Made by a program: the position numbers and the translations under genes | Notes under the pieces: model-generated | What the model was told of the DNA's origin: nothing | The model's input: the letters and a program-made list of their open reading frames with translations, nothing else | Databases searched by the model: none | Shown here: piece after piece, positions 2,080 through 43,790 of the stretch | How positions within the stretch are numbered: the first letter of the stretch is position 1 | Layout of the letters: each line of letters opens with the position of its first letter | Source of the DNA: Eledone cirrhosa | Taxonomy: Eukaryota | Assembly (NCBI GenBank): GCA_964016885.1 | Contig: OZ024742.1 | Span: 170,252,001 to 170,316,000, forward strand | DNA: 64,000 nucleotides | Reading direction: 5' to 3'

Positions 2080-2915
2080 TTAATTTAGGCATGAGGCCAG
2101 CAATTTGTGGGGAGGGGAAAATACTTTACTGGTGCTTTTTTTTTTATTGACCCTAGATGGATGAAAAGCAAAATTGACCATGGGGCAGGATGGGATTGAA
2201 TGTAGATTGTAAAAGGCCATAACTATATGCTGCAAAGCTGTTGTCCAATGCTCTACTGATACTGCCAATCCACTGCCATAATAATAATAATATTTGTTTC
2301 TACATTTGGTACAAGGCCAGCAATTTGAAGGAAAGGGAAACTTATTAAATCAATCCCTGTGCGTCAGAGGTACTTTATTTTATCAATCCCTGTAAGGATG
2401 TAAGGCAAAGCTAACCTTGGTGAGATTTGAACTCGGGACATAAAGAGCTGTAACTATGTTGCAAACCATGTTGTCTGATGCTCTCCTGATACTGACAATC
2501 CACTGCCCTAATGTTTCTACTTTTGGCACAAGGCCAGCAATTAACCCAGTGCATTACTGGTACTTTATTTTATCGACCTCGTAAGGATGAGAAACAAAGT
2601 TAACCTCGGCAGATTTGAACTCAGAACGTAAAGGGCCATAACCCTATGCTGCAAAGCATGGTGTCTGACGCTTTACCGATACTGCCAAACAATAATGATA
2701 ATAATGGTTTATGATTTAGGCACAAGGCCAGCAATTTGATGGAGGGGAAAGTTGATTAAATCAACCCCCTGTGCATTGTAGGTACTTCATTTTATCAACC
2801 CCGTAAGGATGAAAAGAAAACCTCAGTGGGATTTGAACGCAGAACGTAAAGGGCCGTAACTCTATGCCGCTAAGCATGCTGTCCAATACTCTACCAATTC
2901 TGCCAATCCACCTTC
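2080..2915 (-). mobile_element. Four head-to-tail Deu/Nin-domain tRNA-SINE copies, mostly separated by (AAT)n
   Basis: Each copy shows aaggccagcaattt...ggtactttattttatcgacc..gtaaggatgaaaggcaaag...tttgaactc...tactgccaatcc, the reverse complement of the gcctttcatcc..gggtcgataaa..gtacc Deu/Nin core. Copies at about 2080-2278, 2295-2508, 2512-2690 and 2706-2915. Confidence 0.8.
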
Positions 2916-3430
2916 CTAATAATAATGATATAGCCATCCAGGTGTGTTGTAGGCCCTCAGTAATTTGATCCATTTATTTTGAATCTCCTTGTAGCTGTTC
3001 CCAACTTCATTAACATCACCTTAGTCATGTTTTCTAATGAACCTAACTAATCAGCTGTTTGTTTTCTTTGCAGTTCATTTCCGGGGTAACTACAAACAGT
3101 TTTATTTATATCATGTTTACATGTTTTTCTTTTTTTTGTTTAATCCATGAAAGTTACTAATTTTAGTTTTGTGACTAATGTTTTATAAAATAATAATAAT
3201 AATAATAATAAAATAAATAATTATCCAACACTGTCATAAAGTTAACAAAGCAAAGCTGACTAAAATTATTTTTGTAAAGCTCAAGTTTATTGTCCTTCTC
3301 TATCTTGTGACAAAAATATTGTTTATCGTTTTTTGTTTCGTCCAACTTAATAATATCAGCACATGTAAACCGAGGAAATCTTGGAAAAATATCCCATCTA
3401 AATGTAATAAAAATGTTCAAATGGAGCATT

Positions 3431-3432
3431 TA

Positions 3433-3475
<43 letters not shown>

Positions 3476-3490
3476 TATTATTATTATTAC
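3431..3490. repeat. (ATT)n microsatellite
   Basis: Direct trinucleotide run. Confidence 0.95.
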
Positions 3491-4157
3491 CATCATTATC
3501 GTCAAAAACAGACCTTGTAGGGTTTTTTTCTTCAAAATTTAACCAATTGATCCCATTGAAAGTTTTTACTTACAAAGTTACATTGTTTTGATCAATTTCC
3601 TAAAAATTCATGAGTCTGGTAGAGTCTATTCTTGAACAATATATGCAGACACACATACACTTATCTGTTTATTTATTTATCATCACTTCACACTGTTTTT
3701 TAGAAAATTATTTCCTATCTAAAATTCCGAGAGCAAAATTGTATTGATTAAAAAATTAAATTCATTGATCAGTTTTTCAAATGTTTACACATTTATAAAC
3801 TGTTCATTTGTATTATTTTTTTCATTTTATAACAATTTATTTCAATATCTAAACAATTATATTTCTATGCTTAGTTAACTTCTAATAAATAAGACAGTTA
3901 AACATTTTTTTCTAGTGTTTTAAGGCAATGTTTTTTCTTCTCACTCTTTTATTATTTTTTTTTTTTCAAGTTATATTCATGCATGAATGTTTTAAAATGG
4001 TATTTGATTTACCACACTGGAGATTTGAACAATATCTTGTGTATTTTGTGTGTTATGTGTGTATTGCTTTTGATGGATGTGCAGTGTCTGTGTGGATTAG
4101 GAATAATGATACCACCACTCTTATATAAGTTCAAGCACACTAACAGTTATTTTTTTT

Positions 4158-5899: not shown

Positions 5900-7099
5900 A
5901 ATGATTGGACTCAGGCCCCCAACCATTAAAGCCTGCATAGGTGTGAAATGTTTCTCTATATTCAAAAAAGTATTAATGTGGAATGTCACATTACAGCCTC
6001 TATATTTAGTGAAAGTTTCTTTTAAAAATAATTCCTTGTTCGTTCCCCTCTTGGAGTTTAACCAGTTATTACTGTTATTATTCCAATATGTTCTTTCAAG
6101 CAAATCTTATTCACAGTCTCGTTTAATTAACCAACCATCAAGTTCAGCTCATCTAACCTTGAAATTATGTTGTCCAAATTCTTGAATTCTGTTCTAACCA
6201 AAGTCTCCATATCATTCTGACTGTTCAACAATGTAGTCTTTTATCAATTAGAGTAGTTTAACCCTTTTGATACCAAACTTCATGAAACAACTCCACACAA
6301 AACTATTTGTTATAAAGTGTTTATATATATATTTAAAAGACTCTCTTCATAATTTTATGTAAGAACATTTATGTTCCAAGAATCAGTTTTATAAGAAACT
6401 GAGTTGTATTACTAAATCCTTTCCAATTATTAATTATTTTCAAAATTATTTAAAAAAAAATATAGGCAGTGTCTTTCATTAGAAATATAACTGTGTCAAC
6501 AGTAACATTCATCCTGTAATTTACATAAAGAAAATATTTTTGTTGTTTTAAAATGTCTAAATTTATCTAAGAAGCTTTGTTTTAAACACCAACTTAACAA
6601 TGAAAATGTTACCTATTTTACTAAATCCCTCCAAATTCTTTCTTTTTTTTTTTTTAAATTATTTAAAAATCTTAGCTTAATAAAGAGAAATTTAGTCAAA
6701 AGGTGGGAAGAATTTAGTAATATAACTACTTTCAAAATTATTTGAAAACATAGGCAGTGTTTTTCATTAGAAATATAGGAATAACAAGAATTAGGTGTGT
6801 GTGTGAGAGAGAGAGTTGTGTGTGTGTGCATATATGTATGTATGAATATATCTGCGTGTGTATAATAATATAATAATGAAATTATTGTGTAACGTGCTCA
6901 GGTGCACTACAACTCGTCAAAGGTGCATGTATAGTACATAGAATAATATACAAATGTCAGGGAAGTGAATAGTGTATGAGTCATGATATGTGTGTATGGA
7001 GGGGGAACATTAGGTGTAGTGTTGGCAAATCTCGGGAAGCATGGAGGCCTTAAAGGATGCAGTGTCTCGACAGCTAATAACTGATGCAGGTAGTTTGTT

Positions 7100-7924
7100 T
7101 CATGCTTCAGCAACTGTGAGCGTGAAAAAATATTTCCGAAAGTCATGGGAACTATGCTGTTTTCCGACTTTGTGGGCATGCCCACGTGTGTTAGACACAT
7201 GGAAATCAAAAAGGTACTTAGGGTTGTTGTTGGCAAGATGGTTAACAATTTTGTGGGTGTTTACCAAGTCAGTTGCCAGACGTCGGAGCTTCAATGTATC
7301 CATGCCCAGGGAAGCAAGGCGTTCAGAGTATGGTAGATGCCTGATGGAGGGTATTCGCTTGGTTGCACATCTCTGAACAGTTTCCAGGCGGTCAATGTTC
7401 TGAGCAAGATAGGGGTTCCAGACTGGTGATGCAAATTCTAAGTGTGGCCGCACCATAGCCATGTACAGCCTTAAATAGATAGCTGGAGAGCGGCTGACAA
7501 AAGTCTTGCTGAGTGATGCTAAGACACCCTCGGCCCTCTTGACAATTTTAGAAACGTGCTTCGTCCAACGCAAATCGCTGCTGACCGTAATGCCCAGGTC
7601 ACGTTCACAAGAAGACTTCTTGATATTAGTGCTGTGGAGGGAGTATGTGGATGCTGGGTTTTTACTCCCAAAATGCATGGTGGTGCACTTGTTCACAGCT
7701 AGCTTGAGTTGCCAGTCTGAGATCCATTGTTGCATTGTGTCCAGGTCAGACTGCAAGCAAGATCTATAGTGTTCAGGATCTGTCCTTTTTATCTGAAGGT
7801 ACAGCTTGTTGTCATCTGCATACTTTAGTACTGTGGCATTCTTTAAGTTGGCATCTATGTCATTAATATATGCCACAAACAAAAGGGGGCCAAGAACAGA
7901 TCCCTGTGGTACACCAGATAACAT
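7100..7924 (-). pseudogene. CR1-type reverse transcriptase fragment (longest open segment)
   Basis: GVPQGSVLGPLLF, YADD, DLGI and RPHLEF motifs; the upstream frame is broken. Confidence 0.9.
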
Positions 7925-8234
7925 CTCATGGTGAGGAATGCTGTCCCAGAACCGTGACTACCTCTCTTCGACTGAGAATGAAGGACTTCAACCAGTTAAA
8001 AAGATCATCCTTCACACCCATTGCAGAGAGTTTTGCCATAAGCCTTTTGTGTGGCACAGAATTGAAAGCTTTCGCAAAGTCAAGGTAAACAACATCCACC
8101 CATGAGCCGCCATCAGTGATCCAGGTGATGTCTTCAAGAAACTCGATAAGTTGATCACAGCAGCTGGAGTTGAGGATAAATCCAAATTGCGAGGGCCGGA
8201 TAAGACTGTGAGAGTTCCAGAAGTTCCAAAGTGT

Positions 8235-8753
8235 TTATCTGACACAGGATTCCATCAGTTTGGCAATGCAACTAGTAAGACTGACTGGACGATAGTTCAT
8301 AGGTGATGGGCAGTCACCCTTTTTGAACAGAGGAATGACACTGGCAGTTTTCCACTGTTCTGGAGTAGCACCGTTGTTCAGACAGAATTGGAAGAAGCGT
8401 GATAGCTGGTGCAGAAGGAAGTACCCACCACGTTTAAGAAGCAGGTTGCGTTTATTTTTTAGGTGACGTCGCAGCATTGCAGGTGTAAATTCCATAGTTG
8501 TAATAGAATCTGGTGTCATAGGTGGTGGAGACGGTACACTCTGGTCTTCAATAGTGAAAATGCCTGCATAGCATTCAGCAATGAGCTCTGTGCATTCCTT
8601 GGGGTCGTCAATAACCTGGCTTGTGTGGGGTTTGTGAAGAAGACCAACTGGAGAGTGAGGCCTCTGCTTTGAGTGAGCATACTTCCAGAACACCTTACTG
8701 TCAGGGCTGGTTGCTATGCGCTGCTCAAATTGAAGCACTGCCTTTTTTGTCAC
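8235..8753 (-). pseudogene. CR1-type ORF2 fragment (linker plus start of RT)
   Basis: KVFWKY, WKTASVIPLFKKGD, NYRPVSLTSCIAKLMES. Confidence 0.85.
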
Positions 8754-8792
8754 CTATTTGAGGTGGTTGGACGATCTATTTCGCCTCTTCCT

Positions 8793-9055
8793 ATTAATGT
8801 CTGATTTCTCAACATTCTCTACCAGATATTTTGTTTTAGTCTCATTCATTCTCAGCCCCACACTCATTGACACAGTCTCAACCTCCTGCATCAAATCCTC
8901 TGCCTCCTTCACTGTATTTGTCACCAAAACTATGTCGTCGGCAAATTCAGCATCTGATATCTTTTTCGCCTTAACTCTCCTGCTCTGAGCCGGTGCTACA
9001 GTAAAGCCAGAGTCCTGGTGTTTCTCCAGTGCAAGGCGCATACAATAGTCCACTA
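8793..9055 (-). mobile_element. RTE-clade LINE, inverted 5' segment (RT catalytic FADD region)
   Basis: LVDYCMR...SDAEFADDIVL...VGLRMNETKTKY on the minus strand. Confidence 0.85.
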
Positions 9056-9646
9056 ATGTAGGCGGGAAGCTGCTTGAATTGGTTGAGGACTTCCTGTATT
9101 TGGGAGCAAAGATTGGGAATACGGAAGATGATGTGGTTGAGAGGAAGAGCAAAGCCTGGAACGGTGTGCCACAGCTTGAGATTGGTGTGGAAGTCGGAAA
9201 ATCCGGCTCTTCATTGCTGTAGTGGAGTCTGTGCTGCTGTACGGGTCTGAGACTTGGACACTGACCAAGAAACTCACTCCGATGGCGGATGGGTGCTACA
9301 CGAGAATGCTGAGGATGGCTCTGAACATTAATCAGTATACACTGAGGATGAAAAACTCAGAGCTGTATGGGAGCCTCCCAAAAGTCAGCTCAAAAGTGAC
9401 ACAGAGGAGACTGAGGTTAGCTGGACATGCTCACCGACATCCAAAGTTGACATTGCACTCAGTGCTCCTGTGGGAGCCCCTACATGGACACACTGGAAGA
9501 GGAAGACCAAGGTTAACGTATGTTGATGCCCTAAGGACAGATACTGGTCTGTTGGAGACGCAGGACATGATGGCAGCGATAATGAGGGACAGAGACCGCT
9601 GGAGAGAACTCGTCCATGGATCTCGGGGAATTTTACCCGCCCGAGA

Positions 9647-9648
<2 letters not shown>
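9054..9648 (+). mobile_element. RTE-clade LINE, 3' segment
   Basis: LELVEDFLYLG, ESVLLYGSETWTLTK, RMLRMAL, RLRLAGH, GRPRLTY, DRDRWR are typical RTE C-terminal motifs; ends at (AT)n at 9649-9680. Confidence 0.9.
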
Positions 9649-9683
<35 letters not shown>

Positions 9684-9889
9684 TTAGTATTTTGGCTCTT
9701 CAGGGAACTAATTTGTCATTTCTCTGTAAAACAAAAAGTAAAGGTAGAATACTTAAATGTTGATAATTCAGGTGTGGAAATTGGTTTGATTATAGCAATT
9801 TGTATTTTCTTTGTTCAAAACCATTTATTTGTTTATTTGATTCAAACTATATCTAGGCTGTAAATTACTATATTTATGATAGCATATCT

Positions 9890-33434: not shown

Positions 33435-33533
33435 TGTCCTACACCATCTTATTTTTGTGAGCTGTACACAGCTTACAAGAACACAATGGTGTAGAACAGA
33501 ACAAAGGAAAGATACAAAATAACTACAAAAGTA

Positions 33534-33574
33534 GTCATTGAGGAGGTCACAGAATGTGATGAAAGAGTTTTGAC
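33534..33574 (+). ncRNA. Minimal hammerhead ribozyme motif (C3 mutated)
   Basis: gtca-TTGAGGA-g-gtcaca gaa tgtgat-GAAA-gagt-TT-tgac. Confidence 0.55.
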
Positions 33575-33615
33575 AATCAACAAAAACTAGACAACCATCT
33601 AGTTATTAAACTAAC

Positions 33616-33655
33616 CAACTGAGGAGGTCACAGAATATGACGTAAGAGTTTTGAC
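33616..33655 (+). ncRNA. Minimal hammerhead ribozyme motif (GAAA mutated to GTAA)
   Basis: CTGAGGA-g-gtcaca gaa tatgac-GTAA-gagt-TT-tgac. Confidence 0.45.
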
Positions 33656-33809
33656 AATCAACAACTAGACAACCATCTAGTTATTAAACTAACCAACTGG
33701 GAGTTTATAATAAATTGAAGTGAGATTTAACAGGTGTGTGTTTTTATTGACAGCATGACCCTCCCAAAGTATAACAATATATATATATATATATATATGC
33801 ATACACACA

Positions 33810-40033: not shown

Positions 40034-40080
<47 letters not shown>

Positions 40081-40198
40081 AGGTGAGTTTTATTGTAGAA
40101 CAATAAAGCAATGCAAATATCGGATAAGTAGCACTCAACAGTTTATAGGACTGGAGTAAAAATAATATAAAATCAAAAGATGGTTAAGAGTTCCATGT

Positions 40199-40267
40199 AT
40201 TTTATTATGCGCATTTCAAAAACAAATATCATCATGAGATGTTATTTGCGTTCTCATCAGATAAAAT
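40199..40267 (-). ncRNA. Type I hammerhead ribozyme (intact core)
   Basis: Minus strand: attttat-CTGATGA-gaacgcaaataacatc tcat gatgatatttgttttt-GAAA-tgcgca-TA-ataaaat. 7-bp stem I, long stem II, palindromic stem III. Confidence 0.85.
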
Positions 40268-41163
40268 AGGGAGACATGATATGAAGCTTAAAAAACACTT
40301 GTGAGCAGTGAAGTGTTAAATCAACATGAAAAATAAAATAAGATGGATATATAAGATTAGAAAAAAGGAAAGGAAGGGGGGAAGGAAAAGGTGAGGAAGA
40401 AAGAATATAGATAGAAGAAAAAAAAAATAATAAGGAAAGGATGATAGAGGAGGAGTATAAGAGAGGAGGAGAAAATGAGTGAGAGAGAGATAACCTTTAA
40501 TACTGAGAAACTCTGTCTCACAGAGAAAAATAATAAAAAAACCGTTGTAAGATAATACATAATTTAAAAATTAAGAAATTAAAAGTTAATGAGGTTTATG
40601 AATGGTGATGCTTATGATTAAAGAGAAAGGAATTAAGAATACTATTTATGTGCGAAAAGGCATTTATTAAAATGTATTATTCAAATAAAATATATTAAGA
40701 AGATAAGGTTAAATGAATTATGAACTTAGAGAAATTAATTAGGGTCCAAGTTTGTTTCTATATATTGTAATAGGAAAAAGTAAATAATAGATTTAATAGG
40801 AGCACGGAAGGAGAGAAGAAAGAAAAAATTCAAGGAAGAAAAAATATATAGCGTCAAAAAAATATGTTTACAAAATTTCTCTAATGGTAATATTAGTATA
40901 TATTAAAAATAAAAATGGGTATGGCCGAGAATATAAGGAAAATGCTATAGTGAGTTATAAGGTGAATTAAGAAGTAATTGAGAAGTAAAAGTTGCAGATT
41001 AAAGATTAGAAATTAAAAAAGAAGAAAATTAGGGGACCGCTAACGACATAGTATGAGTAATATTGTATAATATACTGAAATAAGGTAGAAAGATGGGTAT
41101 ATTTATAAAATATATAAAAGTGTTTCAGAAAAAAAGATTTTAAACTAATTAGGTAGTAAGATA

Positions 41164-41550
41164 TTAGCTGTATACTTTATGGAAAGTTCTATGGGATTTA
41201 TGCAAGCAGAGCGAAAATAAATCCGTACGTCTATTTATTATAGAATTAAAATTAGAGATAATGGTAAATTTCTCCGCTAGGCAGAGATTACATGTTCAAG
41301 ATAGGGAAGAATTAAGGTAAGGAGAGGCGTTGCAAACCTTCCTCCAAGAAATGTTGTAGTTAATATTTTTGTCCTTTAAGGACCATATGAGTTCTGAGAG
41401 TGCTGTGTTAGTTCTTTTAAGTTGGTATTTAAAAGAGGAATTGTGATTATAAAATCTTGCTTTAAAGTAAGTGGAAGTGGAACCAAAATAGGTAAAAGAA
41501 TTGGTACCAGTTATAACCTTACATTCATACACTAAATTTTTATCAAGCAA
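41164..41550 (-). pseudogene. PLE GIY-YIG endonuclease C-terminal domain with one in-frame TGA
   Basis: LVYECKV...TYFGST...FKARFYNHNSSF...TALSELIW. The frame continues past the TGA (41296-41298) as TCNLCLAEK...INRRTDLFSLCLHK to a TAA at 41164. Confidence 0.85.
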
Positions 41551-42205
41551 TTGACAGACTTGATTGGAATCTTTATTTTGAATTCTTTAAATCGGAAAAT
41601 TCCTCAACTTCGCGGTGGAATATATCGTGACGATGCCCTTTTTGCTGTCTTAAACTGTAACTTAGTTAACCTTAATATTATTAAGAATAATATACTTGAT
41701 CTATTTAAGCAACATAACCTAAAAATTGAATTTGAAAACAACGTCAAACTAGCTAACTTCCTGGATATATCCCTTAATCTTGACACCGGCCTATACTATC
41801 CTTACCATAAAGACAATGAGAATCTAAATTATGTTAATTTTAAATCTAACCACCCTATTAACGTTAAAAATGCTACAGTTAGTAATGTTGAAAAAAGAAT
41901 CTCAAATCTATCTTCTAATAAACTTATCTTTGACGCTAAAGCCAATTATTACAACAATGCGTTTTCCAGAGCCGGTTATCCTGACAAAATTAAATACAGT
42001 AAAGAAACCAATCATCGAGGAACTTATAGTAATATAGTTACTTATAAGCATTCCAATAACATAAAGAAAAGACCTAGATATAAAAATATGATTTGGTACA
42101 ACGCTCCTTTTTCTCTATTATTAATATTCCTAAACTATTTTTTAGGGCCTTAGATAAATGCTTCCCTCCTTCACATATTTATAGTAAGATCTTTAATAAG
42201 CAACT
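41551..42205 (+). pseudogene. PLE reverse transcriptase C-terminal half plus linker
   Basis: GIYRDD, NFLDISLNL, SNHP, RISNLSS, AGY, IWYNAPFS, then frameshifted LDKCFPPSHIYSKIFNK. Confidence 0.9.
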
Positions 42206-42888
42206 TTTTTTAATTTTTTATTTTTTTTATTTCTTATCTTTAATCTGCAACTTTTACTTCTCAATTACTTCTTAATTCATCTTATAACTCACTATAGCAT
42301 TTTCCTTATTCTCGGCCATACAAATCTTTATTTTTAATATATACTAATATTACCATTAGAGAAATTTTGTAAACATATTTTTTTGACGTTATATATTTTT
42401 TCTTTCTTCTCTCTTTCCGTGCTCCTATTAAATCTATTATTTACTTTTTCCTATTACAATATATAGAAACAAACTTAGACCCTAATTAATTCCTCTAAGT
42501 TCATAATTCATTCACCTTATCTTCATTCACCTTATCTTAATATATTTTATTTTAATAATACATTTTAATAAATGCCTTTTCGCACATCTTATTAAACCCT
42601 TCAATATATAAACCTTAAATAAATAGTATTCTTAATTCCTTTCTCTTTAATCATAAGCATCACCATTCATAAACCTCATTAACTTTTAATTTTTAAATTA
42701 TGTATTATCTTACAACGGTTTTTAAAAATATTTTTTCTTCTATCTATATTCTTTCTTCCTCACCTTTTCCTTCCCCCCTTCCTTTCCTTTTTTCCAATCT
42801 CATATATCCATCTTATTTTATTTTTCATATGTTGATTTAACACTTCACTGCTCGCAAGTGTTTTTTAAGCTTCATATCACGTTTCCCT

Positions 42889-42957
42889 ATTTTATCTGAT
42901 GAGAACGCAAATATCATCCCATGATGATATTTGTTTTTGAAATGCGCATAATAAAAT
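42889..42957 (+). ncRNA. Type I hammerhead ribozyme (intact core)
   Basis: attttat-CTGATGA-gaacgcaaatatcatc ccat gatgatatttgttttt-GAAA-tgcgca-TA-ataaaat; predicted cleavage after A42950. Confidence 0.88.
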
Positions 42958-42984
42958 GCATGGAACTCTTTTAACCATCTTTTG

Positions 42985-43023
<39 letters not shown>

Positions 43024-43171
43024 ATGCTTTGGGAGGGTCATGTTGCCAATAAGAAACACACGCACCAGTCGCTTTCACTCCAAATTATTGTAAATTAAAT
43101 TTATAAATTTAAGAATTTATAAATTTCCGATTGGTTGGTTGGTTCCATAACCGGACGGTTGTTCATATATT

Positions 43172-43214
43172 GTCAAAGTTCTTTCGTCACACATTCTGTG
43201 ACCTCTTCAGTGAC
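43172..43214 (-). ncRNA. Minimal type I hammerhead ribozyme motif (intact core)
   Basis: Minus strand: gtca-CTGAAGA-g-gtcaca gaatg tgtgac-GAAA-gaac-TT-tgac. Confidence 0.7.
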
Positions 43215-43282
43215 TGGGGATTCTTTTCTATGTTTCGAGCCTCTCCATTGTTCTGTCCTACGCCATCTTGTTTTTGTGACCC

Positions 43283-43323
43283 CATTGAAGAGGTCACAGA
43301 ATGTGTGACGAAAGAACTTTGTC
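43283..43323 (+). ncRNA. Hammerhead motif, mutated copy
   Basis: ca-TTGAAGA-g-gtcaca gaatg tgtgac-GAAA-gaac-TT-tg; C3 changed and stem I truncated. Confidence 0.5.
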
Positions 43324-43532
43324 AATATATGAACAACCGTCCGGTTATGGAACCAACCTATCAACCGGAAATTTATAAATTCTTAATTTTATAAATTTTA
43401 TTTATAATAATTTGGAGTGAAAGCGCTGGTGCGTGTGTTTCTTATTGGTAACATGACCCTCCCAAAGCATAACAATATCGGTTTCAACACACGTTTTCAG
43501 ATAAAGAATCTTGCTAAACAAATTCAGAAACG

Positions 43533-43609
<77 letters not shown>

Positions 43610-43610
<1 letters not shown>

Positions 43611-43790
43611 GATATTAACAAATGGAAACTATATTTATAAAACTATATTTATTTCATTATACATATTTCAAGTATAAATATAGTTTCCATTTGTTAATAT
43701 CGTATTTTTACTCCAAATATTTGTTGAGTGCTTTATATCAGTTATAAAAATATTTCCTTGTTGTATCCCAACAATTTAAATAGAACTTTT
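43610..43790. mobile_element. Short PLE terminus with a 30-bp perfect inverted repeat, between (TA)n tracts
   Basis: 43610-43639 pairs with 43673-43702. The loop holds the 3' half of a hammerhead (minus strand cttGAAAtatgtaTAatgaaat). The tail tttttactcca...gttgagtgc resembles 40131-40162. Confidence 0.65.

Follow-up and report, generated by a model that had tools for sequence, protein, structure and literature searches.

How did two halves of a Penelope-like element (PLE) come to lie back to back between two (TA)n tracts, each ending in an outward-reading hammerhead motif, and do these ribozymes still matter where they lie? The locus that raises these questions spans 40079–42989 of a 64,000-nt stretch of the Eledone cirrhosa genome (the window), and was first described in an earlier note made from the letters of the DNA. 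Judged by its sequence, the structure is real: it is a decayed copy of a Hydra-clade PLE in (TA)n. In our view the locus is likely a single insertion of this kind, with back-to-back arms that arose by twin priming.

The features of the insertion are collected in Table 1. The minus arm consists of endonuclease (EN), 3'UTR, hammerhead and tail, and the plus arm of half a reverse transcriptase (RT), 3'UTR and hammerhead. Mapped on a natural copy of the family, L058 (3696 nt), the minus arm corresponds to 2094–3694 and the plus arm to 1067–1729 and then 2656–3597. The earlier note was right about the divergent PLE halves, since the EN and RT remnants are 94% and 89% identical, respectively, to the long ORF of L058, and about the broken ORFs, with an in-frame stop in the EN remnant and a frameshift near 42125 in the RT remnant. 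Its inverted repeats of about 800 bp also stand, with 3.3% substitutions between the arms over 734 aligned columns and indels between 2 and about 130 nt long; the one-sided tail had escaped it. It had further placed a palindromic CAATTG at the junction of the halves, a reading that we rejected, whether as hairpin or as palindrome. The motif belongs to the RT itself, where intact copies have GCAATTG, and the endonuclease side reads on as ACATTGG, so that the junction falls at 41547/41548, with one shared base.

The plus arm does jump from the linker straight to the 3'UTR (42202 to 42211), as had been noted. An EN-skipping, non-autonomous subfamily was rejected as the explanation, because among 41 matches the window copy alone crosses that junction, and the gap of about 930 nt is thus private to it. 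The deletion junction carries a ATCTTTAAT..GCA microhomology and an 8-nt filler (42203–42210) similar to 42250–42255, and the gap may have originated either during copying or afterwards. L075 carries another deletion with an RT-side break nearby. The breaks in L075, in L098 and at window position 42202 all fall within 4 nt of one RT/linker position (reference 1728–1732); ATCTTTAAT adjoins this breakpoint and recurs in the 3'UTR, making it a possible deletion hot spot.

Table 1. Features of the two-armed PLE insertion (positions in the window)
Feature	Position	Strand	Basis
(TA)n target, left flank	40035–40078	.	sequence; Hydra-clade insertion preference
Tail of ~90 nt, left arm only; tail-plus end at 40079	40079–40164	-	
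Bulged hairpin 1 (ACTC..TTGAGT), just 3' of the tail-less start site	40133–40157	-	predicted fold; natural pLTR-ORF junctions
Left inverted-repeat arm (3'UTR / pLTR sequence)	40165–41031	-	
Left type I hammerhead motif; core 40260–40254 and 40217–40214	40198–40268	-	sequence
GIY-YIG endonuclease remnant, 5'-truncated; in-frame stop 41298–41296	41164–41547	-	
Inversion junction between arms, one shared base (G41547)	41547–41548	.	
RT C-terminal half with YRDD and thumb, then linker start; frameshift near 42120–42130	41548–42202	+	
Private deletion junction, ~930 nt missing (linker, EN, UTR start)	42189–42255	+	
Right inverted-repeat arm (3'UTR), stops at tail-less site	42211–42993	+	
Right type I hammerhead motif; core 42896–42902 and 42939–42942; private G42958	42888–42958	+	sequence
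(TA)n target, right flank	42990–43019	.	sequence

To an artefact of assembly as the source of the inversion we give almost no credence. Across 41547/41548, four sequencing runs of other samples showed no bridging contig or read; these runs lack the private alleles of the window copy (for example at 41503) and therefore probably lack the insertion. The divergence of the arms, with its many indels, and the occurrence of 57 analogous insertions with different junctions both argue against an artefact.

The family to which the copy belongs is abundant, with 1552 first-look candidates for 206 nt and 641 exact copies of a 55-nt ribozyme motif in the 3.0-Gb genome. Searches of Pfam, NCBIfam and PDB profiles did not convincingly name the RT or EN, yielding one weak RT match, and the domain names consequently rest on motifs. 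The marks of the Hydra clade given in the accessible part of Craig et al. (PMC8557442) are DKT, RWK, a CxCX5C linker, CxxC/CxH and a (TA)n target. The family has a single ORF in which an RT is followed by a C-terminal GIY-YIG EN, and its YRDD and EN region align with ten homologues. It carries DKT rather than DKG, and intact family ORFs have the CxCX5C linker (CNCRIKNKC or CNCPVRTKC) together with CNLC..E and N..CLH around the conserved E and N, and no CCHH; the window copy retains CNLC and CLH. Insertion in (TA)n is seen at the window flanks and at most locus ends. Domain order, diagnostic motifs and target are thus those of Hydra-clade elements including Hydra-1_Obim and Penelope-13_HM, and the hammerhead likewise lies in the 3'UTR/pLTR (PMC8557442). 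The family differs in having RWT where homologues and the clade have RWK, in a tail of about 95 nt as compared to 30–40 nt, and in its length: the same source describes Hydra-clade elements as "generally" short (under 3 kb), whereas the natural unit here is about 3.7 kb (L058), with an ORF of about 800 aa, a 3'UTR of about 1.1 kb and an N-rich linker insert. We conclude that this is a new Hydra-clade member, its placement being made by motifs, with published Hydra proteins compared by eye.

The linker insert is exemplified by the L054 ORF, where about 70 Asn/Thr/Ser-rich residues (about 580–660) lie between thumb and CxCX5C linker; this insert is missing from the ten homologues and recalls the N-rich inserts of rotifer PLEs in the part of PMC3846280 that was available. 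A related younger subfamily (L051–L055, about 83% identical in RT) has open frames of 815–821 aa, and the arms of L055 show 1 difference in 669; near-identical arms and open frames together suggest recent activity.

Inverted 5'-truncated copies with a one-sided tail are typical of PLE insertions, and Penelope-13_HM includes an inverted 5'-truncated copy with one hammerhead on each strand (PMC8557442). The layout in the window is this published form, and it is common to about half of the family loci that we examined. These comprised 121 loci including the window, 61 picked by RT protein and 60 further, all best-scoring matches rather than a random sample. Copies end at either of two fixed sites about 95 nt apart. 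In outward-facing arm pairs with both ends readable, a tail was present on exactly one end in 57 of 57 cases (26 in the 61 RT-protein loci and 31 in the 60 further loci), and the tailed arm may be either arm of the pair. Tailed arms of 140 bp or less occurred in 16 of the 57 pairs, as compared to none of the tail-less arms, and all 16 stop at reference 3560–3640, around the tail-less site (3597). At four pLTR-ORF junctions, a similar CTC..TTGAG hairpin is predicted a few bases 3' of either end site, and in full copies a similar predicted hairpin also follows the tail-plus site. Direct copies of more than unit length exist as well (for example L058, L067 and L088). Such copies, and the long tailed arms, need RNA 3' of the tail, which an uncut tandem transcript could supply, as could a circle made by the hammerhead.

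The two arms of an insertion are also related to each other. Rare variants common to both arms were found in 27 of 34 pairs, the arms were nearest neighbours in 13, and in 26 they were closer than the median to other copies. The remaining pairs, seven without a shared rare variant and eight not closer than the median, count against twin priming, and the sharing of rare variants could also stem from gene conversion. The window arms share three rare variants, and of 63 other arms only three are nearer in sequence. Two independent insertions could have entered the same (TA)n tract in back-to-back orientation, as the family has a preference for (TA)n and is found nested with other PLE stubs. This origin is nevertheless highly improbable, given the relatedness of the window arms, the absence of (TA)n at their junction, the strictness of the one-tail rule, and the orientation of neighbouring motifs: pairs no more than 5 kb apart, among the first 100 exact motifs listed, face outward in 8 cases and inward in none.

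An inverted arm could also arise if a singly primed copy then folded back and primed itself, or if a template jump followed, possibly on antisense RNA. For rotifer PLEs, palindromes at the junctions of inverted copies have led to a self-priming proposal (PMC3846280); self-priming would account for variants common to both arms, and exact fold-backs do occur in two of the 57 pairs (L061 and L183). As a general origin of the arms we consider it unlikely. The inner ends coincide in those two pairs only and are unequal in the other 55 (2094 as compared to 1067 in the window, in reference coordinates), which argues against fold-back self-priming; the window junction has no palindrome; and a copied-back arm cannot gain a tail that is missing from its template strand, yet either arm may be tailed.

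The exact or near fold-backs form a small group of their own. In L061 (7003–7447) and L183 (3747–4145) both arms stop at reference 3423, and four further sites (G000:C1:174788593, 259649753, 371480710 and 422819354) are also very short exact or near fold-backs. All of these carry two hammerheads about 160–190 bp apart.

In LINE-1 twin priming, the same RNA also serves as template for a cDNA primed by the second target strand, and the 5' part becomes inverted; the second site is variable and the two segments barely overlap. In the present family, in contrast, both sites are fixed and the arms often overlap by hundreds of bases. Under twin priming of this kind, each strand of the cut (TA)n target would serve as a primer on one and the same element RNA, one cDNA starting from the tail end and the other from the tail start. 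A dimeric RT/EN would start at two hairpin-marked sites about 95 nt apart. The enzyme at the tail end would often stall where the second had started, leaving tail-only arms, or would displace past that start, giving long arms as in the window, and the two cDNAs would be joined at their truncated ends. The hammerheads would point outward because each arm begins at the 3' region of the RNA. They likely served the source element in processing of a tandem RNA, possibly into a circle, and would be passengers at the window locus. Against this reading as a whole, the Poseidon hammerhead is dispensable for insertion in vitro (PMC11167929).

The one-tail rule, the short tailed arms, the shared variants and the unequal inner ends, together with biochemistry on another PLE, lead us to favor twin priming. 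In the accessible part of Frangieh et al. (PMC11167929), a Poseidon PLE protein is active on both strands in vitro, cutting and extending each; reverse transcription begins at two sites, one on either side of the tail, and a dimeric protein is predicted. Poseidon PAc and the present family have an AT-rich target in common, and would also share two RT starts bounding the tail and the cutting and extension of both strands; Poseidon belongs to a different clade, and the accessible part of that paper does not link the two starts to the two arms of inverted insertions. As a wider and decidedly more tentative proposal, twin priming from two sites may be obligate in PLEs, such that a dimer on two duplicated hairpins makes one cDNA per tail end from one RNA, likely a circle produced by the hammerhead, into opposite (TA)n strands. 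The long-stem-II hammerhead, with its conserved C.C or C.U mismatch and without G10.1-C11.1, would then be an uncharacterised variant that the cycle needs. Beyond the papers cited, a search of mostly open-access literature yielded neither a printed twin-priming model for PLEs nor octopus PLE hammerheads.

Both window motifs have the CUGANGA / GAAA / UH core with stems I–III, one motif per strand, both reading outward and with every core base intact, as the earlier note had described. The cleavage site that it expected on the plus strand, after 42950, agrees with our prediction, and on the minus strand cleavage is predicted between 40206 and 40205. An Rfam search, which the note had proposed, returned 13 matches at E≤1, none of them a hammerhead. 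The long stem II (36 nt with its loop) and the self-complementary stem III, the palindrome ATGCGCAT, were correctly identified. Two features had been overlooked: the private G42958 of the right arm, which lowers predicted stem I pairing from 0.79 to 0.40, and a G-U pair that opens stem II in place of G10.1-C11.1, with T before GAAA. C in the latter pair was found in 1 of 109 family copies. The left motif has two private changes in stem II/loop II.

Minimal, dimer-acting PLE hammerheads, in the part of Cervera and de la Pena (PMC4209133) that was available, likewise are of type I with a short palindromic stem III and a large helix II, and occur as opposite-strand pairs 100–700 bp apart. Unlike those, the present motif lacks the G10.1-C11.1 pair and has a helix II of 3 bp, a C.U mismatch and 12 bp. 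The 36 nt between its core boxes compare with 26 or fewer in File S2 of Craig et al. (PMC8557442), where T before GAA, as in the window family, appears in 14 of 26 Hydra hammerhead rows listed. Clustering of hammerheads in 1.49 Mb of partly overlapping loci gave 18 clusters with at least two members, 11 of which have at least 26 nt between core boxes; in 10 of these 11, three base positions and a C.C or C.U mismatch are followed by a longer helix, with covarying pairs. We regard this as a long-stem-II hammerhead variant, which may already be described in the work of Lunse et al. 2017 on variant PLE hammerheads. Among loci L001–L230, about ten unrelated hammerhead families combine a long stem II, mismatched C.C or C.U at its position 4, with an AUA cleavage triplet and a palindromic stem III of 8 nt.

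The earlier note had supposed that a transcript of either strand would contain one potentially active ribozyme. There is indeed one per strand. We doubt that it is active, since hammerheads of this kind depend on a partner on the same strand (PMC4209133), which is missing here. With one motif on each strand transcript, the two arms cannot form a dimer in cis, and in the same source a single PLE motif is inactive and dimers are of low activity. The palindromic stem III is predicted to be unstable (monomer probability of 0.001 or less), and a duplex of the AUGCGCAU palindrome is predicted at -10.5 kcal/mol. By this modelling, the window ribozyme is probably weak as a monomer, with a 2-bp stem III. 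The long double-stranded RNA foreseen in the note is in line with our fold prediction, in which a read-through transcript would pair the two arms (-402 kcal/mol for 266 bp of arms).

The intactness of both cores despite the divergence of the arms had been noted in a way that implies special preservation. The cores are intact; preservation is another matter, and the probability that both would be intact by chance at this divergence is about 0.5–0.7. Intact cores were found in 98 of 109 family copies, and core changes were depleted among 111 copies (9, with 21.3 expected). Between arms, a first set of 15 pairs had no core differences where 5.9 were expected, and a second set of 19 new pairs had 10 where 9.4 were expected; for the 34 pairs combined, which leave aside four pairs of the younger subfamily, there were 10 as compared to 14.9 expected (P=0.12). 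Protection of the catalytic core after insertion was therefore rejected, as the depletion in the 111 copies and the first set did not recur in the second. Cores decay about neutrally after insertion, and those at the window locus need no special explanation. Inherited variants, shared by both arms, were few in the ribozyme, at 5 distinct variants per 80 differences between arms, as compared to the 100 nt upstream (23/114) and further up (183/486), suggesting that selection likely acted on source elements and not at the window locus. The 32 nt just downstream were equally depleted (2/33), and the constraint may thus cover the whole 3' end rather than the ribozyme alone. It is likely that the 3' end, including the ribozyme, is constrained in mobile sources and decays after insertion.

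These results bear on whether the ribozymes or the long duplex were kept at the window locus for a host function, as a cleavage switch, editing substrate or small-RNA source. Intact cores, the absence of core differences in the first set and a duplex predicted to be very stable would fit such a role. We hold it to be very unlikely, since intact cores are expected by chance, the second set did not replicate the first, hundreds of equivalent copies exist, and private changes weaken stems I and II in the window. No host gene was recognised among window ORFs of at least 110 aa, a threshold that short exons would escape.

The window also holds other elements. Directly adjoining is another fold-back PLE stub, without an ORF and from a different family (43016–43520), with arms at 43016–43212 and 43283–43478, outward hammerheads and a tail on the right arm only; its minus core is intact (CTGAAGA), and its plus core has C3 changed to T. 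A related copy lies at about 33475–33798. A short, perfectly paired, AT-rich hairpin (43609–43703) flanked by (TA)n tracts is possibly a minimal two-armed stub, and decayed LINE RT fragments of two kinds occupy both strands of 7020–9863.

The window locus itself is ordinary. The family to which it belongs turns a PLE oddity known for a long time, an inverted arm with an optional tail, into a strict rule, and the tandem and inverted insertion mode of PLEs and the role of their hammerheads are stated open questions (PMC8557442). The one-tail rule gives a mechanism that is open to testing, and the family offers young, nearly intact open frames and defined RNA start sites.
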